NCBI GenBank assembly: GCA_049599895.1
Contig: JBMYPC010000059.1
Span: forward strand, 1-18,126
Direction of reading: 5' to 3'
Length of the DNA: 18,126 nt
From: Bacteriovoracaceae bacterium
GTDB lineage: Bacteria; Bdellovibrionota; Bacteriovoracia; Bacteriovoracales; Bacteriovoracaceae
Under the pieces are notes generated by a model that ran no database searches, was not told the DNA's origin, and saw only the letters and a program-made list of their open reading frames with translations. A program made the translations under genes and the position numbers. The number at the start of each line of letters is the position of its first letter. Position 1 is the stretch's first letter. Shown here in pieces: positions 2,010-12,218 of the stretch.

Positions 2010-4493
2010 TTAGAATGTAGGGAGTTCGGGTAGATCACTTCGACGTGACTCAGTCTTTTGCTCGACCAATCTGAGTATCAGTTTATTGAGCTGATTAACC
2101 TTTAATTCAAGCTTATTATTTTTGGTCATGTAATACTGGTGAACTTCTTTAAGTCGTGCACTGACAATGTTTTCAACTTCAGCATTTGAAAAGCTTTTTT
2201 GTTGTATCAAAAAGTTTGAAACACTTTCTTTGAACGTATCAAGCTCATGTTTCAGGATCTTGATCTCTTCAATATGATCTTGCTCAGCTGTTAACTGAAT
2301 ATGAGAAAGCTCTTCTTTCATCTTTGAATAATTTTGAAAGATTTCATGATTTATAGAAGTTGAAAGATCTTTAATTCCCTCGGAAATGGTCTTATAAAGC
2401 CCCTTGAGATGCTGTTCCTGTTCGAGGTTTTCCGAAGTGATTTGTTCAAAAAATGATTTCTGAGATGAAAGGATTTTCTTCTGTAAATCATTGTTCATCA
2501 TTTTGAATTCATTCGATTTTTCAACAAAGACTTGGCCTAAATTAAGCTCCACATCTTTTTCAATAGTAGAAGCCTTATTTTGAATCTCACCAATTCGATG
2601 CTCGATCGCTTGGTCAAAATTGGCCAAAGACCTTTCGTTAATTTTCTCAACACTCTCTGAATATTTCTCAGTTTTATTCTCAAGTTCACTCAATAGGCAA
2701 TCTTGAGTTGTGGATCGTAGCTCATTGACAATGAGGTCTTGATTTTTCTTCATTTCATGAAAGCAACTTGAGAGTTCTTTTGAAACAACCTGCTTGAGTT
2801 CCTCAATAAAATCCTTTTGGTGACGACTAGCAATCGACTCTAATCTCTGCTCTTGATTTTTATAACTTACTTGGCCAATCTTAGCAGCTGCAACCTCTAA
2901 GCTCTTTTTTGCTTCGGCTAAGTCGGCAGAATGGATTTCATCTATTTCTTCAGAATATTTCTCTATTAATGCTTTACTATAATCCCCTAGACTTTCAAGA
3001 GTGCTGTAAACCTGAGATTTCAAATTCGGTCTTAAAGTTGAAAGGGCCATCTCAACTTCTTGATCAAGAGTTTGAATCATTTTGTTTTCAAACAAGTTTT
3101 TTGTATTTTCTAAGATCTCTCTCGTTTCTGAAATCTTTGCTTGTATCTCATGATTTGTTCTTTCAAGGACAGAAGAGGAGGTCTTCTCGATTTGATGTAT
3201 CGTTTTTTGAGTTTGTCGTTCAGAGTCTTTAGAAAGCTTTTGTTGATAGTACTTATGAGTCTCTTGATTTTGTTTCTTAGAGTCTTCTTTTAGCTTTAAT
3301 AGATTATTTTGAAAATTCCTTTCTTCTCCAGAGCGGATTTTTTTCATATCCATCAGAAGATTATCTTTAATCAGACCCTGTTTTTTTTCACATGTCTTTT
3401 GAAAGTTCTTTTCAAGTTGAGCAGAAGCTCGAGAAAGCTTCTCGAAGGTGTTTTGAAGCAACTTCTCTCCTTCTTTTCGAGACTGCTCTTCAAACTCTTT
3501 TAAAACTTCACCCTTGATTTGATTTCCATCATTCTCGAGAACCCTTTTGGTTTCTCTCGCGATACTTTCAGAGAGGTCCTGAGTTTTTTCTTTAAAACCT
3601 TTGTGAATTCCTTCCAGTATTTTTTGAAAATTTGCAATTTCAAGGATTTTAGAGTTTTTAATCGTTTTGTTGAAATCTTCTTGGAGTACTTTTGATTGGT
3701 TCTCACTTGAAGATCGGAACTCCTCCTCATGCTTAATCGCAATTTCGTTGATTCTCTTTTTAAATCTCTGTTCTTGATCATTTGTAAGAGAGAGAAGACT
3801 TTTCTCAAACTGATCACGACAAAGATCTCGATGATGCTTAAGGTTCTCTAGGCTTTCCCTCATTCCTTTTTGAGAGTTTCGAGAAAGGGTCTTTACACAT
3901 CTTGAGATTGTCTCATCCCCAATTTCTTTACATTGAATAAGTGTTTTCTTTTGAAGATCAGAGAAAAGATTTGAAGCATTTTTTGTTAAGCTAACAAAAT
4001 TCTCATCAGCTTCAATCCTAAACTCTCGAATAAGACGCTTAAATAGCTTCTCAATTTCATGGCGGCTACTTAAAGACTTATTTTTGATAAAATCACCATT
4101 TTGGCTTTGAAAAAGATCTGTGCTTTTTTGAAAAGCTGTTTCCAAGTAATTTGAAAACTCGGATTGTAAATTTTGAGACTTTAGGACTTCTTCGGAGTGA
4201 ACCTTTTCAACTTTTTCAGAAAATGTTGCAAAGAGAATCGATTCAAGATTCTTTAGCTCTCTTTCAAACTTCTCTTTTCGTTTTTGATCGAGTTCAAACG
4301 ATTCAATAAGTTTATCGGCCTTAACTCTTAAAACCTTTTGCACTTCTGATGAATAATCTCTAATTTGATTTTGAAAACGAGATTCAAGTTTGGAGAAAAA
4401 CTGGTTTGAAACTTCGTTAAAATGACCCTTTAACTCTGGGGAAAGAACCCGAGCAACATCTTCAACTTTAATAATCGATCTTCCGTGATTCAT
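2010..4493 (-). CDS. Hypothetical 827-aa all-alpha coiled-coil protein (15/11-residue periodicity)
   Basis: Long ORF with AGGAG RBS 5 nt before the ATG. It is E/K/Q/S/L-rich, almost Pro-free, and has no signal peptide or TM segment. No family recognised. Confidence 0.85.
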   Translation of the reverse strand: MNHGRSIIKVEDVARVLSPELKGHFNEVSNQFFSKLESRFQNQIRDYSSEVQKVLRVKADKLIESFELDQKRKEKFERELKNLESILFATFSEKVEKVHSEEVLKSQNLQSEFSNYLETAFQKSTDLFQSQNGDFIKNKSLSSRHEIEKLFKRLIREFRIEADENFVSLTKNASNLFSDLQKKTLIQCKEIGDETISRCVKTLSRNSQKGMRESLENLKHHRDLCRDQFEKSLLSLTNDQEQRFKKRINEIAIKHEEEFRSSSENQSKVLQEDFNKTIKNSKILEIANFQKILEGIHKGFKEKTQDLSESIARETKRVLENDGNQIKGEVLKEFEEQSRKEGEKLLQNTFEKLSRASAQLEKNFQKTCEKKQGLIKDNLLMDMKKIRSGEERNFQNNLLKLKEDSKKQNQETHKYYQQKLSKDSERQTQKTIHQIEKTSSSVLERTNHEIQAKISETREILENTKNLFENKMIQTLDQEVEMALSTLRPNLKSQVYSTLESLGDYSKALIEKYSEEIDEIHSADLAEAKKSLEVAAAKIGQVSYKNQEQRLESIASRHQKDFIEELKQVVSKELSSCFHEMKKNQDLIVNELRSTTQDCLLSELENKTEKYSESVEKINERSLANFDQAIEHRIGEIQNKASTIEKDVELNLGQVFVEKSNEFKMMNNDLQKKILSSQKSFFEQITSENLEQEQHLKGLYKTISEGIKDLSTSINHEIFQNYSKMKEELSHIQLTAEQDHIEEIKILKHELDTFKESVSNFLIQQKSFSNAEVENIVSARLKEVHQYYMTKNNKLELKVNQLNKLILRLVEQKTESRRSDLPELPTF

Positions 4494-5953: not shown

Positions 5954-6721
5954 CTAAGCATAGGAAACTTCGTGCAAAAAAAGTCCATGGGCAGGAGCGA
6001 CAAAACGCCTTTCAGACTTAAGCTCAGGGTCAAAAAGATCTTCAAATTGCGCAGCGCTTATTTTCCCTTGGGCATAATCTAAAAGAGTCCCAACCATAAG
6101 TCTGACCATCTGTTTTAAAAACCCCGAGCCTCTAAACTTTAAGCAAAAAATAGCTCTTCCCTCAACACCAAATGGCCCTACTTGATTCAACTGAGAAAGA
6201 TCTGCTTCAAAAATTTCTCTAATATAAGAATTCACAGGGGTGCCAACACAAAAGAAATTGTGAAAACTTTTTTCTCCATGAAAAAAATCCATCCCCTTCT
6301 CAAGCTTTGCAAGATCAAAGTCTCCTTGAAAATGGGCGACATAACGATAAAGAAACAAACCTGGATCTTCAAAACTTAAGTAATAGCGATACTCTTTGCT
6401 AAGTGAATCCTGAATAGGATGAAAACTCTCATCACATTCACAGGCCTCAATAATCTTGATTCCAGTAGGAAGTGTGTCGTTAAGCCCCTTTTTTAGGTTG
6501 GCACTCGGAATTGAGCGAGAGAGACTTAATTTTACAACTTGAGCTCTTGCATGAACTCCTGAATCCGTTCTTCCCGATGCCATGGTTAAAACAGAGTCGT
6601 CATTAAAGACCTTCGCTATTGTTTGATTAAGATCACCTTGGATCGTTTTCACATTTGGCTGAATCTGCCAGCCATAATAATCTGTACCGTCATATGAAAT
6701 TTTAAGTTTATAGGTATTCAA
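5954..6721 (-). CDS. truA: tRNA pseudouridine(38-40) synthase
   Basis: Motifs YDGTDYYGWQIQ, catalytic GRTDSGVHA, GSGFLKQMVRLMVG and APAHGLFL. The start is uncertain (TTG at 6721 or ATG at 6739). It overlaps the upstream gene's end. Confidence 0.95.
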   Translation of the reverse strand: MNTYKLKISYDGTDYYGWQIQPNVKTIQGDLNQTIAKVFNDDSVLTMASGRTDSGVHARAQVVKLSLSRSIPSANLKKGLNDTLPTGIKIIEACECDESFHPIQDSLSKEYRYYLSFEDPGLFLYRYVAHFQGDFDLAKLEKGMDFFHGEKSFHNFFCVGTPVNSYIREIFEADLSQLNQVGPFGVEGRAIFCLKFRGSGFLKQMVRLMVGTLLDYAQGKISAAQFEDLFDPELKSERRFVAPAHGLFLHEVSYA

Positions 6722-7706
6722 AAGTGATTCCCATTCCATATGTTGATCCACTGATTTGAATATCAGTATCACTAAAAGTGGAATAAGATTGGTGTCTCAT
6801 ATAAAAATCAAGACTCATTCTCGTCGCTTTATAAAGTGAATAAATGTCTCTTCCAAGACTTGGAAAAAAAGAACTCAAAGTAAAACTCAAGGCACCATTA
6901 GCTGAGTAACCATGCCCAACCTGTCTTCGATCCTTCGAAGCGTCTGTATCCTTTCTGTCATCACGACTCTGTAAAAGAAGCATGCCACCGTAGGCACCAC
7001 CCAAACTAATCCCCACATATTTCGATGGCCTTAAAGTCAGCCCTACTTCAAATTCCATGGGAATCGTCCAAAGTTTAAATTCAGTAGTACTTTCTTCAGC
7101 AATAGGAGGCGCAAAGTATCCATAGCCTCTGTTGTAACCAATTCCTAAATTAAATCCATAATAGAGAGTTTTATTCATTCTATTTTTAAGATTAAAAAAG
7201 AAAGTTCCAAGGTTTAAAGAATTACTTCCCTCTCGAAAAGTTCGGTTAAAGATGTCATTTCGATCTTGGTAATCATAATTATCAGTCATATAGACAAAGC
7301 TAAATGTTGATTTTCCTTCGTTGTGAATTGCAGTCATAAAGCCTGAATCAGATGTGACCTCATAACTTGAAACCTGTGTTTCTCCAGGGTTTGCAATATT
7401 GAACTGTCCAAACTTTTGAACATTTCCAGCATATTTTGAATTGTCTTTTTGGGGAAAGAAGTGGGCTGTTTTATCAGATTTCATTTTCTCATCGCCTGCG
7501 AACTCGCTTGATTTTTGAGAAGTGACAAGATGAGGAGCAGGCTCGTTTTTTTCTTTATTAGAATCGTTTGAGTAGAGCTTTTGCTCTATTTCTTCATCAA
7601 TTTGCCCAGGCATTGCTTGATAGCCAAGCTTTTCAGTAGATGAGCATGAAATGAGACTTAAAAGAAGGACAGAAAAAGTGACTTGATTCAAAGTTTTATA
7701 AGTCAT
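6708..7706 (-). CDS. Hypothetical lipoprotein with probable C-terminal outer-membrane beta-barrel
   Basis: ATG at 7706 with GGAGG at 7720-7716. Signal peptide MTYKTLNQVTFSVLLLSLIS-C contains a lipobox, followed by a polar linker. The C-terminal part has Gly/aromatic alternating strands (YYGFNLGIGY, FEVGLTLR, YVGISLGGAYG) and ends YGMGITFEYL. Confidence 0.7.
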   Translation of the reverse strand: MTYKTLNQVTFSVLLLSLISCSSTEKLGYQAMPGQIDEEIEQKLYSNDSNKEKNEPAPHLVTSQKSSEFAGDEKMKSDKTAHFFPQKDNSKYAGNVQKFGQFNIANPGETQVSSYEVTSDSGFMTAIHNEGKSTFSFVYMTDNYDYQDRNDIFNRTFREGSNSLNLGTFFFNLKNRMNKTLYYGFNLGIGYNRGYGYFAPPIAEESTTEFKLWTIPMEFEVGLTLRPSKYVGISLGGAYGGMLLLQSRDDRKDTDASKDRRQVGHGYSANGALSFTLSSFFPSLGRDIYSLYKATRMSLDFYMRHQSYSTFSDTDIQISGSTYGMGITFEYL

Positions 7707-8442
7707 CTTCTTTTTCCTCCCATTTAAAAATATCTCCAAGTTCCCCGCGATTTAAAAGAAAATAAATTAAAGAGATAAAGATATAAGAATAAATCACAAG
7801 CCCTACCATGATCTCATGGTAAGAAAGAGTTAAGAGAATTAAGATAAAAATAAAAATCAAAAAGTATCTTCTATTTTTACGGATCCACTTTGATTGCTTC
7901 AAGCTATTGAACGGAACATTAGTAATCATGAGACTCGCAAAGAGCACAACTAAGGCACCAGGAATAATCAGGGTATCTTTAAGAATTGAGAATTCAATAG
8001 AAAGAAGAACTAAACCAATAACAGCAAGTGCCGCTGCCGGACTTGGAAGCCCTTGGAAAAAGACCGATCCTACTTTCTCAATATTTGAATTAAATCTTGC
8101 AAGCCTTAAAGCCGCGCAGAGAAGAAAGATAAATGAGATGACAATCCCAACTCTTCCAAAACTTTGAAAATAATAAAAATACACCAAAAAACTTGGAGCA
8201 ATACCAAAAGTAATAATATCGCTCATTGAATCAAATTGTTCACCGAAGCTCGACTGAGTTCCAGTTAGACGAGCAACTCTTCCATCAACAGAATCAAAAA
8301 TGCTTCCTAAAATAAGAATCATACAAGCTTTATCGAACTGACCAGTCATTGAAAGAATGATGGAGACAAAACCACAGGCCATATTTAAGGCCGTAAAAAT
8401 ATTTGGGAGGAAAAAGGCAATCTTTTGTTTATTTCCGATCAT
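7696..8442 (-). CDS. pssA: CDP-diacylglycerol--serine O-phosphatidyltransferase (CDP-alcohol phosphotransferase type)
   Basis: LPNIFTALN at the N-terminus and an intact CDP-alcohol motif DSVDGRVAR...SSFGEQFDSMSDIITFGIAP. Also AALRLARFN and FFQGLPSP. Polytopic membrane protein. Confidence 0.92.
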   Translation of the reverse strand: MIGNKQKIAFFLPNIFTALNMACGFVSIILSMTGQFDKACMILILGSIFDSVDGRVARLTGTQSSFGEQFDSMSDIITFGIAPSFLVYFYYFQSFGRVGIVISFIFLLCAALRLARFNSNIEKVGSVFFQGLPSPAAALAVIGLVLLSIEFSILKDTLIIPGALVVLFASLMITNVPFNSLKQSKWIRKNRRYFLIFIFILILLTLSYHEIMVGLVIYSYIFISLIYFLLNRGELGDIFKWEEKEDDL

Positions 8443-8484
8443 TTTTGGTCAATAACTTTTTAATTTTAGTATGTTGTTATTGGT

Positions 8485-8514
8485 AGTATATCGCTCTATT
8501 ACCATAGATATCAA
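8485..8514 (-). promoter_or_regulatory. Putative internal sigma70 promoter for pssA
   Basis: TTGATA (8514-8509), an 18-nt spacer, then TATACT (8490-8485). It is overlapped by an inverted repeat at 8481-8504. Confidence 0.55.
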
Positions 8515-8515
8515 G

Positions 8516-9157
8516 TTAAGCTTTCGCTGAAGTCGCTGCAATTGCAGGGTTAACACTTGAAATTATAGACTTTCCTGCGTTTAACTCATCTCCAATCTGA
8601 GATTGAACCTTATAGGTCTCATCAAAATAAAGAAGCGCGAGTCCTCCAAACGGCATAAGACCGATATTGGCCCTGGCCTTCCCTCTGTCGCCAGGTGCGA
8701 TGACGGTTTCAGGACTCATCGAAAACCAACATTTCACAAGCTGAATCCCAAGAGTTCCCGCAGACTTTGAATTGAGCTGAATTAAAACTCCGTTTTCTTC
8801 ATCTTCAGTGGATTCTAGTTTATAAGTCATAAACCTATTGGCTTCTTTCATGAGCTTCTTTTGCACATCTTTAATTTCAGCACTTACAGGAAGGTAAACT
8901 CCATAATTATCAAAAAATCCGATTCTCACCTGCATGACTGTTTGATTTTTTCCAAAAAGAGGATGATCTACCCCTTCTTGAATTCCAGTCACCTTTCCAG
9001 AGATAGGAGCATAAACTTCTTCCCTTGTGAGAAGCTGATCTGTAAAAAGAGGAATCTTTCTTTTTCTAAAAATAACAAGAGCGATCCCGTAAAGAACGAT
9101 TGCCAATAAAAAGAGCAACCACCATGAAAAAAGATAAAACACAAAGAGTGGAAACAA
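8516..9157 (-). CDS. psd: Phosphatidylserine decarboxylase-like protein, catalytic residues apparently replaced
   Basis: N-terminal hydrophobic anchor, then segments collinear with short (~210-230 aa) Psd proteins: APISGKV, FFDNYGVYLPVSAEI, GLMPFGGLALLYF, IGDELNAGKSII. It sits just upstream of pssA. The start is uncertain (TTG 9157 or ATT 9196). Confidence 0.72.
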   Translation of the reverse strand: MFPLFVFYLFSWWLLFLLAIVLYGIALVIFRKRKIPLFTDQLLTREEVYAPISGKVTGIQEGVDHPLFGKNQTVMQVRIGFFDNYGVYLPVSAEIKDVQKKLMKEANRFMTYKLESTEDEENGVLIQLNSKSAGTLGIQLVKCWFSMSPETVIAPGDRGKARANIGLMPFGGLALLYFDETYKVQSQIGDELNAGKSIISSVNPAIAATSAKA

Positions 9158-9191
9158 AAAGGCAAAATGATATCGATTTGAAAGATAAGTT

Positions 9192-9788
9192 CTAATTTTT
9201 CTTTTCCTTTAACGCAAACTCTACTTTAACTGGTCTAAAATAAAAAGGCTCTAGGTTAAGTTTTAGTTCTTTCACTCTTTTAAAGAATGATTTCTCGTTC
9301 TTTAATATCAATTCATGAGTGAGTTTTTCATTCTCTACATATTCTAAATCATTAGAATAGAAATCAGCGGTTTTATCTAAAAGATTATCTTTGGGGACAA
9401 GCTTTGACTCTTCTTCATCTCCATTCCAAGAATATTGAAAAAACTCATTCTTATATGCATTACAAAAAAAACTTCCCCGATCAAATCCAAGAAGCTTTGG
9501 GACTTGATGATGATAAAAACCATAACAATCAATTTCATCTTGAGAAAGAATATCTTCAAAGGGCTTAACAACTCTAATTCCAGTATAAGATCCAGGGCCC
9601 TTTGCAAGCACTAAGTTCTTGAGGGAATCAAGGTCTTGCCCATGAGATTTTAAGATTTCATAAACCTCTCCATGAATCACTCGTGAGGTTTTTTTCTCTG
9701 GAATTTCTTTATATTCAATCCAACTTAGGTCTTCACCAAGAAGACCGATCCTTAAAGTCACAGTTGTATCAATAAATAAAGTCGTCAT
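9192..9788 (-). CDS. tsaB: tRNA threonylcarbamoyladenosine biosynthesis protein TsaB (divergent)
   Basis: N-terminal LFIDTT, GPGSYTGIRV motif and C-terminal LEPFYFR. Position directly after rseP. Confidence 0.88.
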   Translation of the reverse strand: MTTLFIDTTVTLRIGLLGEDLSWIEYKEIPEKKTSRVIHGEVYEILKSHGQDLDSLKNLVLAKGPGSYTGIRVVKPFEDILSQDEIDCYGFYHHQVPKLLGFDRGSFFCNAYKNEFFQYSWNGDEEESKLVPKDNLLDKTADFYSNDLEYVENEKLTHELILKNEKSFFKRVKELKLNLEPFYFRPVKVEFALKEKKN

Positions 9789-9794
9789 AAGTTC

Positions 9795-11324
9795 TTATCG
9801 AGTAAAATCGTTAAAAATTGCCCCAAACATTAAAAGAAGAACGATCGAGAGTCCTACCTGTTGAGCAATTTCCATTTTCCTTCTTGAAATGGGTCCTCGA
9901 TTTAAAATCTCAAGGAAGATAAAAAGAATATGACCACCATCAAGAATTGGAATAGGTAATAAGTTAATTATCCCTAAATTAACAGAAAATAACGCCATCA
10001 ATTGTAAAAAATAAGTAATACTGATTTCAAAGGAATCATTGGCAAGCTTTCCAATAGTGACTGGCCCACCAATTTGCTTCAAGCTCGCTTGCCCTGAAAT
10101 TAACATGTAAAAGCCATCAATAGTTTTTTGGATCGCTACAATTGTTCTTTGAAAGCCACTTGAAAGGGCGGCACCAAAGCTTTCAGGTTTTGTCATCACA
10201 AATTTTGGCCTTACGTACTCTCCAGCACTGTAAACACCAATTTTTTTAACGACTTTTCCATTAATCTTATCAAGTTCAGGAGTCAGTTTTTTTGTAACTT
10301 TTTTTCCTTCAGAGATAAGCTTCACCTCAACTGATTCCCCCTTACTTTGCTGAATCAGATCTCTCATTTGCATGAAACTTGTGAGAACAATGCCGTCGAC
10401 CTGGGTCACAATGTCATTCGACTTGATTCCCGCTTTAAAGGCCGCTGAATTATCAACAACCTTTTCAACGACAAGATCTTTTGGATAAAGCCCAAGGGCG
10501 ACTAATTCTTGTTTTCTCGTTTCAAGTTCAGTCGTTTGAAAACTCACTCCTTCTCTTTTCCTTTGGTCATCTTGAAAAAGGTCAATGAAGTTTTTATTTG
10601 GAGCTGTGAGAATCTCTTCAAGGGAACTTACAACCTCCTCACCTTGAAAACCATCGCTAAGCTTTAAAGTCTTTCCTTCACTTGAGATAAGAATTGGTTT
10701 TAAAAGAAGAGGTGGCACTTCAACAATTGCCTCAAAAAACTTCTTTCCTCCAAGGTTTACAGGAAGAACAACTTCAGCTCCTCTTCTTATCACTGTAACA
10801 GTGTTAACATTGTTAACTTCATCCCCTAAAAGATCAGTAGGATTTTTAATCTCTCTATCATTAACCTTATAAAGAATATCTCCTGTGTTAAATCCAAATG
10901 AAGCAAGTTTATGAGTTTTAAGAACTGGTCCAAGCTTAATTTCAGGAATCTTTTCTCCATTCACTGAAAGAAAAAAGAATAAGGCCATCGCCAGTAGAAA
11001 GTTTGCTAGTGGCCCACCAAAAACAATCCAGAACCTTGCCCACTTTCCTTTAAAAGTGAAACTGTACTTTCTTTGATCTTCTGGAATGCTCTCTTTATTA
11101 AGAGGATCATCACCAAACATTTTCACGTATCCACCAAGAGGAATCGCGGAAAACGCGTACTCAGTATCACTCATTTTAAATTTTAATAGCTTTGGACCAA
11201 AGCCAATTGAAAATGTTTCAACACGAACTCCAAACAGCCTTGCAAAGAGAAAATGTCCCAATTCATGAAAGAAAACCAGAGGAGTTAAAAAAAGAATAAA
11301 AATTAATACAGCTGTAATCGACAT
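9795..11324 (-). CDS. rseP: RIP metalloprotease RseP (site-2 protease with PDZ domains)
   Basis: HELGH zinc motif, FSIGFGP, IPLGGYVKM, GGPLANF, PDZ-like segments, and NLLPIPILDGGH. Confidence 0.96.
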   Translation of the reverse strand: MSITAVLIFILFLTPLVFFHELGHFLFARLFGVRVETFSIGFGPKLLKFKMSDTEYAFSAIPLGGYVKMFGDDPLNKESIPEDQRKYSFTFKGKWARFWIVFGGPLANFLLAMALFFFLSVNGEKIPEIKLGPVLKTHKLASFGFNTGDILYKVNDREIKNPTDLLGDEVNNVNTVTVIRRGAEVVLPVNLGGKKFFEAIVEVPPLLLKPILISSEGKTLKLSDGFQGEEVVSSLEEILTAPNKNFIDLFQDDQRKREGVSFQTTELETRKQELVALGLYPKDLVVEKVVDNSAAFKAGIKSNDIVTQVDGIVLTSFMQMRDLIQQSKGESVEVKLISEGKKVTKKLTPELDKINGKVVKKIGVYSAGEYVRPKFVMTKPESFGAALSSGFQRTIVAIQKTIDGFYMLISGQASLKQIGGPVTIGKLANDSFEISITYFLQLMALFSVNLGIINLLPIPILDGGHILFIFLEILNRGPISRRKMEIAQQVGLSIVLLLMFGAIFNDFTR

Positions 11325-11384: not shown

Positions 11385-12218
11385 CTATAAGGTATTTGGA
11401 ACAGCCTGGGACAAGATAAATGCAGCATAAAATGGTGCGACGACAATTAAGCTATCAATTCGGTCGTATACTCCCCCGTGTCCAGGAATAAGCTGAGAGG
11501 AATCTTTCACATTAACGATTCTTTTAAGTTTTGATTGAAATAAATCTCCAAGCTGGGCCGTAATAGAAAGAAATGGAAAAAGAAGAACATGAAAGAGAGA
11601 AACATTTAAAAAGAAATATTGCCAGAGAGCTAAAGCACAAATTGAACTCACGATTGCTCCCCCCACGGCCCCTTCGATAGTTTTATTCGGACTTACAGCT
11701 TCCCAAAGCTTGTGTTTTCCAAATTTCTTTCCACAAAACCAAGCTCCAATATCTGTTCCAAAATTAATGACGAGCAAGATGGTAATCACTCGTTCCCAAA
11801 AAGGATGAGTTAATAATGCAGCAATCGCCATACTCGGAAGTCCAATTAAAAGGAAGGGAGCGACTCTCATTGAGCGAGCAAATTGCAAAAGTGATTCGCT
11901 CAGACTTCTTTTCACAAAAAGAAAGATAAAGAGAAAGACATTGAGAACAATCCCAGCGTTAACAAACATTTGGTAATACCCGTAGCTTGACTCAATGAAA
12001 TTAAAAAAGATGAAGCAAGAAACAAGAAGAGCCTGATTAAGAAGATAAGGTAAGGACTTTCGCCGATACCCAAGAATATTTGTATAGAATTCGTCAGTAA
12101 AAAGAATCGATGTCACGAGAATGAAAATACTAACCGCGCGTTCACCCTGTACCATACAGAAAGCGACAATCGCCACAAGGACAATTGCTGAAATTATTCT
12201 TTTTTGGGTATTGGACAT
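11385..12218 (-). CDS. cdsA: Phosphatidate cytidylyltransferase
   Basis: DIGAWFCGKKFGKHKL, SPNKTIEG, GDLFQSKLKR, and KDSSQLIPGHGGVYDRIDS. Confidence 0.96.
   Translation of the reverse strand: MSNTQKRIISAIVLVAIVAFCMVQGERAVSIFILVTSILFTDEFYTNILGYRRKSLPYLLNQALLVSCFIFFNFIESSYGYYQMFVNAGIVLNVFLFIFLFVKRSLSESLLQFARSMRVAPFLLIGLPSMAIAALLTHPFWERVITILLVINFGTDIGAWFCGKKFGKHKLWEAVSPNKTIEGAVGGAIVSSICALALWQYFFLNVSLFHVLLFPFLSITAQLGDLFQSKLKRIVNVKDSSQLIPGHGGVYDRIDSLIVVAPFYAAFILSQAVPNTL

Follow-up and report, generated by a model that had tools for sequence, protein, structure and literature searches.

A Psd-like protein lacking the catalytic residues of phosphatidylserine decarboxylase is encoded upstream of pssA in Bacteriovoracaceae: a predicted pseudoenzyme of phospholipid synthesis

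The stretch of DNA analysed here (the window) comprises positions 1 to 18,126 of contig JBMYPC010000059.1, 18,126 nucleotides (nt), from the Bacteriovoracaceae bacterium assembly GCA_049599895.1. Its minus strand carries the gene string ftsK, rpsB, tsf, pyrH, frr, uppS, cdsA, rseP, a tsaB-like gene, psdL, pssA, a lipoprotein gene, a truA-like gene and tig. The subject of this study is psdL, an entry in the list of open reading frames (ORFs) at 8516..9157 on the minus strand, which is related to the phosphatidylserine decarboxylase (Psd) genes and runs uninterrupted for 213 codons from a TTG at 9157 to the stop codon at 8516..8518. It lies directly upstream of pssA (7696..8442, minus strand) on the same strand, with a gap of 73 nt between the two. 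The product of pssA, CDP-diacylglycerol-serine O-phosphatidyltransferase, matched TIGR00473 with an E-value of 5.6e-40 and 136.9 bits (cut-off 107). Its motif D-G-x2-A-R...G-x3-D-x3-D is intact, and the residues D50, D53, G54, A57, R58, G67, D71 and D75 are invariant in 60 orthologues. The only listed sequencing run that covers positions 7600-9900 of the window in full is seawater-metagenome DNA, and the source organism is marine and belongs to the predatory Bacteriovoracaceae. A first-pass annotation of the window had taken psdL for an intact Psd homologue in which all three catalytic residues are replaced, and had suggested that the protein was repurposed, for example as a lipid-binding, scaffolding or regulatory partner of PssA.

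The true start of psdL is probably not the TTG at 9157 and instead the non-canonical ATT at 9196..9194, as judged from related sequences. Orthologues start with M-x-x-x-Y-L about 14-15 residues ahead of the position that aligns with the TTG (the one at locus L015 reads M-I-R-T-Y-L-S-N), and the match of a profile of the PsdL clade on the window extends over 8549..9196, beginning at model position 2. The putative N-terminal extension comprises 13 codons (I-R-T-Y-L-S-N-R-Y-H-F-A-F; 9158..9196, minus strand). The ATT shares 1 nt with the stop codon TAG (9194..9192) of the tsaB-like gene and is preceded, 8 nt to its 5' side, by an AGGA (9205..9208, minus strand) that may function as a Shine-Dalgarno element; no comparable element was read from the sequence ahead of TTG 9157. 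In the numbering from the TTG, which is used throughout, residues 1-30 of the encoded protein PsdL (9068..9157, minus strand) form a predicted hydrophobic membrane anchor followed by F30-R31-K-R-K, as indicated by a Kyte-Doolittle scan and by helices at 2-9 and 13-29 in the structure model described below. With the extension, hydrophobic 19-mers in the same scan span residues 10-46 of a 226-amino-acid (aa) form.

By the curated cut-offs of PF02666 and of the NCBIfam PRK05305 models PsdL does not belong to the Psd family, though its homology to Psd is significant. Pfam PF02666 did not match PsdL at E <= 1 in a protein scan, nor at E <= 10 in a genome search. Eight NCBIfam models of short-type Psd do match it. 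The best of these is NF003678 (E 1.7e-9), which aligns PsdL residues 7-202 on profile positions 30-217 of 218 and scores 37.3 bits, far under the curated cut-off of 225. In a profile-profile comparison, hhalign aligned 24 clade members to four canonical short Psd proteins, taken from other families of the same phylum, over 199 columns, with a probability of 99.5 % and an E-value of 3.2e-23. In this alignment SPxxGkV is paired with SPADGKV, e-x-G-i-y-l-P with N-V-H-x-N-R-x-P, and PfGGtV with FGSRVD. In a quick maximum-likelihood tree of 58 rows, which carries warnings on long branches, the 24 clade members form one group (Shimodaira-Hasegawa-like approximate likelihood ratio test, SH-aLRT, 98) that joins the short type (99), and 30 long-type Psd proteins stand apart. 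When the sequences of the PDB were searched with the clade profile, no Psd was returned at E <= 1, and biotinyl-domain and EIIA matches were weak (E 0.06 or worse). As to existing annotation, one of 10 clusters bears a name, which is 'hypothetical protein'.

The AlphaFold2 model of PsdL, computed with 141 sequences, reached a mean predicted local distance difference test (pLDDT) of 93.5 and a predicted template modelling score (pTM) of 0.89. It has the Psd fold: VIA-align superposed it on the beta chain of Escherichia coli PSD (7cnx_C) with Z 10.9, a root mean square deviation of 3.6 and 153 aligned residues, model residues 1..170 corresponding to chain residues 28..252. PsiD (8x4q, Z 9.3) and an Aspergillus arginine decarboxylase (9jer, Z 9.0) were matched as well, and the neighbours of the model in the ESM Atlas are PF02666 clusters with template modelling scores of 0.80-0.83. 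The first-pass description of a full-length, uninterrupted frame collinear with short Psd proteins and truly homologous to them is thus upheld by the 213 open codons, the 199 collinear columns, the NCBIfam models and the superposition on E. coli PSD, PF02666 itself giving no match. Sequence and model together indicate that PsdL is a full-length, membrane-anchored descendant of the short-type Psd that normally precedes pssA.

According to passages of Cho et al. (2021, PMC7952604), the auto-cleavage of E. coli PSD is driven by D90/D142-H144-S254, S254 yields the pyruvoyl group, and the substitutions H144A and H144N abolish decarboxylation. Corresponding residues in PsdL were located by an L-INS-i alignment with the four canonical short Psd proteins, by hhalign, and by an L-INS-i alignment that included E. 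coli Psd (NC_000913). All three agree that E. coli D90, H144 and S254 are equivalent to the Asp of P-A-D-G, the His of N-V-H-x-N-R and the Ser of F-G-S-R in the short type, and to S53, Y85 and G172 in the window. Ser53 (codon 8999..9001, minus strand) stands in place of the triad Asp, so that P-A-D-G reads P-I-S-G; Tyr85 (8903..8905, minus strand) replaces the catalytic His; and Gly172 (8642..8644, minus strand), followed by Leu173, replaces the pyruvoyl-forming Ser. These are the codons that had been picked out by eye in the first pass. The structural alignment stops at model residue 170, equivalent to chain residue 252 at the end of the beta chain, which places Gly171-Gly172 on Gly253-Ser254. 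By the family alignment P169-F-G-G172 (8642..8653, minus strand) is a predicted uncleavable form of the F-G-S cleavage loop. Because the Ser, His and Asp are replaced by Gly172, Tyr85 and Ser53, PsdL is predicted to be unable to cleave itself or to decarboxylate. Asp83 of the window protein falls on the column of E. coli D142, a column that is variable in the clade.

The substitutions are shared by the orthologues, a point that the first-pass annotation had proposed to check. Relatives were gathered in an exhaustive protein search among 1.84 billion representatives, which gave 225 clusters at E <= 1e-3, 120 of them at E <= 1e-10; such a search was needed, as a word-indexed one yielded 3 relatives only. 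A family alignment of 152 rows was made from the query, P0003 and 150 listed proteins of the 225 clusters (50 % identity clustering). At position 172, the canonical Ser, Gly is found in 138/152 rows and Ser in 3. The canonical His of position 85 is preserved in a single row, the column being occupied by Tyr (49), Met (25), Phe (17) and Trp (13), and the canonical Asp of position 53 is present in 10 rows, against Asn in 61 and Ser in 36. From the Gly-Gly count 46 loci were excluded that derived from a scan with an 8-row alignment, since P[FL]GG was part of the pattern scanned for. As the substitutions are clade-wide, a sequencing error is ruled out, and so is recent decay of the gene. The alignment indicates that the catalytic loss is ancient and common to the whole Bacteriovoracaceae clade.

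Nor does another residue appear to take over: across the 152 rows no column conserves a His, nor a Ser nucleophile able to substitute, and the only His of the window protein, His65, lies in an unconserved column. On this point, too, the first-pass annotation has held. Position 173 deserves separate mention, as it is Thr in 69/152 rows and Ser in 26/152, and Ser-to-Thr variants of pyruvoyl enzymes process slowly. PsdL could then be a self-processing decarboxylase with another nucleophile, for example Thr/Ser173 in a shifted register, that yields a ketobutyryl or pyruvoyl group. This is hardly credible. In the alignment with the long type, Thr173 falls on the Thr of G-S-T and not on the Ser, and the catalytic His is absent in 151/152 rows, whereas H144 is indispensable in E. 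coli according to passages of PMC7952604. Thr173 as a cryptic nucleophile was rejected for the window, where PsdL and its closest relative P0004 (50 % identical) have Leu in common at this position.

The losses reach far beyond the triad. Of the 61 columns that are invariant in the four canonical short Psd proteins, 12 are kept in >=70 % of the 24 clade members, 11 are intermediate and 38 are kept in <=20 %. The 12 retained columns are all F, R, P, G, L or V, and the polar columns (N-E-Q-N, Q-I-A-G, A-R-R-I-V and S-R-x-D) are all among the lost. The phosphate ligand of E. coli PSD, Y137, aligns to a column that is variable in the clade. The lipid-binding version of the role first suggested for PsdL is weakened by these losses. 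The clade has motifs of its own: P51-x-x-G54, E84-x-G86-[ILV]-[YF]-[LFM]-P90, P155-G156-D157-[RK]158-G159-[KR]160, G166 and P169-[FL]-G-G-[TS]-V. Counted over the 152 rows, D157 and P90 are each kept in 150, G166 in 149, G156 in 147, G171 in 141, F/L170 in 135, G159 in 130, R/K158 in 127 and P169 in 125; P51 is among the positions kept in 146-150 rows, and R31 behind the anchor is present in 132. The window protein has the clade-specific P155-G-D-R-G-K160 at 8678..8695 (minus strand) and keeps the motifs except for Asn in place of Glu84 and Leu in place of Thr/Ser173.

The gene is widespread in the family. A search with the single protein gave matches in 21 of the 24 Bacteriovoracaceae genomes searched and in 4 of 16 genomes elsewhere in the phylum; the enzymes at the four outside loci (L021, L025, L027 and L028) are canonical and carry S-P-A-D-G, N-V-H-x-N-R and F-G-S-R-x-D. 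With the clade profile matches were found in 141 of 151 Bacteriovoracaceae genomes, the window's own included, in 104 of the 110 of high quality and in 64 of 69 genera, and almost all of the 141 have an uninterrupted frame; the other 10 of the 151 genomes had no match to the profile. Two contigs with a typical rseP-tsaB-psdL-pssA locus, L059 and L104, are titled 'Sulfitobacter sp.' and 'Flavobacteriaceae bacterium' metagenome-assembled genomes. The PsdL of L059 is 87 % identical to that of the family genome G009, and both contigs are probably mislabelled or contaminated bins.

Selection on psdL was estimated as the Nei-Gojobori ratio of non-synonymous to synonymous substitution rates (dN/dS). 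For the 7 distinct closest pairs with dS < 1 among the pairs listed, which come from other genera than the window's lineage and in part from loci found via a motif pattern, values of 0.022, 0.041, 0.045, 0.047, 0.047, 0.059 and 0.102 were obtained. In the same pairs the neighbours gave 0.006-0.091 (pssA) and 0.042-0.131 (tsaB). The check for a ratio below 1 among orthologues, proposed in the first pass, thus came out at 0.02-0.10 in close pairs of other genera. These sequence comparisons indicate that psdL is under purifying selection in close relatives.

An intact second psd, whose presence the first-pass annotation had proposed to look for, is encoded in the window's genome on contig 8. It is of the long type (G000:C8:8736-9626, 296 aa), carries D-Y-H-R-F-H and F-G-G-S-T, and is the sole strong match to PF02666 in that genome (E 3.8e-50 in the genome search, E 6.1e-50 by hmmscan). 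A long-type psd was present in 24/24 family genomes tested, with E-values of 1e-43 to 1e-52. Of the 16 non-family genomes, seven have a short psd beside pssA (G028, G029, G030, G031, G037, G038 and G039), and in these seven no second PF02666 match was found at E <= 0.001; one further genome of the 16, G036, had no PF02666 match at all. The long-type Psd proteins of the family (L001:1240-2130 and L031-L058) have A-[FP]-x-E-A-R-Y in place of the E. coli P-A-D-G, so that the D90 column holds Glu or lacks Asp, and keep D142-Y-H144-R-[FY]-H147 and G-G-S-T. The missing Asp fits the reported interchangeability of D90 and D142 in E. coli. Strong or medium PF02666 matches additional to the long-type psd, which represent further Psd paralogues, were seen in G014 (C23, C53), G018 (C24) and G033 (C21), with E-values of 7e-41, 7e-28 and 5e-28. 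NF003678, titled 'phosphatidylserine decarboxylase family protein', also matches the control genome of Synechococcus elongatus, which PF02666 does not, and another divergent Psd-like group may exist in cyanobacteria.

Both copies occur in 24/24 family genomes tested and in the genome of the window, which raises the idea of a regulator of the prozyme kind, in which the dead copy would pair with the live long-type Psd and adjust how the latter matures or how active it is. E. coli PSD has been described as dimeric. A precedent among pyruvoyl enzymes is AdoMetDC of Trypanosoma brucei, as far as passages of PMC5201418 describe it. Such pairing is nevertheless improbable for PsdL: the two copies belong to deeply split Psd subfamilies (SH-aLRT 99, stem lengths of 1.9 each), they are unlinked (contig 8 versus contig 59), and the dead copy is genetically tied to pssA and not to psd.

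This tie to pssA is a family trait. The gene order rseP-tsaB-psdL-pssA is fixed in the family; pssA adjoins psdL in 20 of 21 family loci, one locus stopping at a contig edge, and tsaB does so in 20 of 21. Over 68 loci the distance from the psdL stop codon to the first ATG of pssA has a median of 10 nt, and in 60 of them it does not exceed 20 nt. The canonical short psd of four other families in the phylum likewise lies directly upstream of pssA, which makes the dead gene the positional descendant of a live one. On the other side of psdL lies the tsaB-like gene (9192..9788, minus strand; 198 aa), recognized by synteny and by a match of its N-terminal ~70 residues only to TIGR03725 (E 2.2e-9, 37.6 bits, cut-off 69.3). 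Its position is conserved across the family, its dN/dS is 0.04-0.13, and it may be a divergent or reduced TsaB. It is preceded by rseP (9795..11324, minus strand; a site-2 protease of the M50 group with PDZ domain, PF02163, E 5.6e-67) and by cdsA (11385..12218, minus strand; PF01148, E 3.6e-53), whose product, CDP-diacylglycerol synthase, makes the substrate of PssA. Downstream, a gene for a predicted lipoprotein of 343 aa with an LISC lipobox and no Pfam family (6708..7739, minus strand) overlaps pssA by 44 nt and is conserved 3' of pssA in most family loci. An 827-aa ORF at 2010..4493 (minus strand) was without a Pfam family at E <= 1e-5.

Catalytic residues have thus been lost from a frame that is intact and under purifying selection (measured in related genera), and a live enzyme of the same family is encoded in the same genome, as is characteristic of a pseudoenzyme. 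That PsdL is a dead Psd descendant under selection is held here with a probability of roughly 0.85. Several observations weigh against this reading or against a role beside PssA. The dN/dS values do not come from the window's own lineage, in which the nearest relative is 50 % identical. PsdL evolves fast: its median identity within the family is 0.31, versus 0.56 for PssA, 0.37 for TsaB and 0.48 for RseP (canonical short Psd proteins across four families have 0.45, and their PssA 0.50), and terminal branches measure 0.3-3.3 in the psdL clade versus 0.1-0.8 for the long Psd of the family. In 5/5 profile-negative genomes inspected (G043, G052, G055, G057 and G071) pssA comes immediately after tsaB, and the space between them is too short for an ORF. 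In G002 and G005 the psdL slot holds very divergent ORFs, and some matches contain stop codons (G005, G066, G131 and G145). In the window itself the gap to pssA is 73 nt and a promoter-like site is present at 8514..8485, so that coupling would be weaker here than in most relatives; among listed RNA runs none was found to contain positions 7600-9900. Finally, the charged residues conserved in the remodelled loops (D157, R/K158, E84, E94 and R108) could equally serve a new catalytic site. Since five genera have cleanly deleted psdL, the gene is dispensable, and any role would be accessory and not essential.

The fast evolution, the clean deletions in 5 genera, the very degenerate versions in G002 and G005 and the stops in a few matches are what would be seen if psdL were a slowly decaying relic, without function of its own and kept open only through its embedding in the operon, where its translation feeds ribosomes to pssA. 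There is little chance of this. A spacer that served coupling alone would not retain amino-acid motifs, and 146-150 of 152 rows preserve D157, G166, P90, G156 and P51; moreover, dN/dS is 0.02-0.10, the frame is intact in nearly all matched genomes, and the fold is predicted with a pLDDT of 93.5. The same conserved positions bear on another proposal, a neofunctionalized enzyme in which the former loops (P-G-D-R-G-K, E-x-G and P-F-G-G-T) have been rebuilt as a pyruvoyl-independent catalytic or ligand site for phosphatidylserine (PS) or for some other lipid or head group that is produced beside PssA. The most conserved positions do cluster in three active-site loops of Psd (P51/G54; E84/G86/P90; G156-D157-R158-G159 with P169-G172), D157 and R/K158 among them, and purifying selection equals that on pssA in close pairs. 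Most of these positions are Gly or Pro, that is, structural; G-D is also found in the canonical hairpin, so that D157 may be structural as well; a family-wide His, Ser or Cys nucleophile is lacking (Cys143 81/152, Thr/Ser173 95/152); and the gene has been deleted in five genera. A new enzyme is for these reasons considered unlikely.

For the dead descendant under selection the simplest history is that the ancestor of the Bacteriovoracaceae had both psd genes, of which the long type made phosphatidylethanolamine (PE) and the pssA-linked copy lost catalysis. Takeover of PE synthesis by the long-type enzyme would have freed the linked copy from catalysis. PsdL would then have persisted as a beta-sandwich domain that is neither cleaved nor catalytic and lies on the cytoplasmic side of the membrane, produced along with PssA through translational coupling, and would be an accessory factor, regulatory or scaffolding, of PS synthesis or of the hand-over of PS to the live decarboxylase. 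Dead LytM domains and the AdoMetDC prozyme, as regulators of live enzymes, offer parallels to such a role. That PsdL acts with PssA as such a factor is given an even chance. As the canonical polar pocket is gone, regulation or scaffolding through protein-protein contacts is rated above canonical PS binding. A more specific version is rather doubtful: it casts PsdL as a dedicated regulatory subunit without catalysis, which would gate the flux from PS to PE by binding to PssA or by forming a bridge between PssA and the live Psd. If true, it would make PsdL the first pseudoenzyme regulator on record in the bacterial PS/PE pathway.

Psd is treated as a self-processing enzyme with one function, and textbooks derive PE from the psd-pssA pair. 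The present clade, which numbers at least 225 clusters (at 50 % identity) and is found in most Bacteriovoracaceae genera, has lost the catalytic apparatus while keeping the fold, the anchor, new motifs and the coupling to pssA. This points to an unrecognized non-catalytic layer in bacterial PS/PE synthesis. In full-text literature searches, whose coverage excluded subscription journals, no paper on a catalytically dead homologue of Psd came up. Annotation of such genes as 'phosphatidylserine decarboxylase' would over-predict the capacity for PE synthesis. The question can be tested in cultivable Halobacteriovorax or Bacteriovorax strains.

Among known systems the nearest is the short-type Psd (the PRK05305 group with NF003678, NF003680 and TIGR00164; bacterial and archaeal, including archaetidylserine enzymes). 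PsdL resembles it in its length of ~210-230 aa, an anchor ending in F-R, the fold, the place upstream of pssA and collinearity over 199 columns. It differs in the replaced Ser, His and Asp, the loss of 38 of 61 invariant columns, the new P-G-D-R-G-K and P-F-G-G-[TS] motifs and its faster evolution. E. coli PSD (PDB 7CNW-7CNZ and 6L06) shares the beta-sandwich core with the PsdL model (Z 9.5-10.9 over 153-156 residues) at ~12-14 % identity. It is of the long type and has amphipathic N-terminal helices, whereas PsdL has a hydrophobic anchor, and its D90, D142, H144, H147 and S254 are without counterpart in PsdL, apart from Asp83 of the window protein at the D142 column.

The best structural match to the PsdL model is EIIA-Glc of the phosphotransferase system, with Z 13.5-13.7 over 123-135 aligned residues. 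The higher Z probably reflects a single uncleaved chain that spans the whole domain. EIIA-Glc has a conserved pair of active-site His residues that can be phosphorylated, whereas the PsdL clade has no conserved His, and PsdL is membrane-anchored by prediction and stands in a lipid-related context. Membership in EIIA-Glc was rejected despite the Z of 13.7, no His being among the columns conserved in >=50 % of the 152 rows. The broad fold class is also shared with LytM domains, the group of the catalytically inactive LytM factors (EnvC, 4bh5, Z 9.1; DipM, 7qrl, Z 9.4; and NlpD) and of SpoIIQ (3tuf, Z 9.6). In LytM/M23 peptidases the Zn ligands are HxxxD and HxH; membership in this group was rejected likewise, as PsdL has no conserved His and the resemblance is one of fold only (Z 8-10). 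LytM factors are periplasmic, related to peptidoglycan and derived from Zn peptidases, and no sequence homology to PsdL was detected. As described in passages of PMC10336132 and PMC10268282, catalytically inactive LytM factors regulate amidases and cell-wall hydrolases, and so are dead enzymes reused as protein-binding regulators. The prozyme of AdoMetDC in T. brucei, for which passages of PMC5201418 report that it heterodimerizes with the pyruvoyl enzyme and activates it, has a fold and a pathway unrelated to those of PsdL. In that account it is, like PsdL, a dead paralogue of a pyruvoyl-dependent decarboxylase that exists beside a live one.

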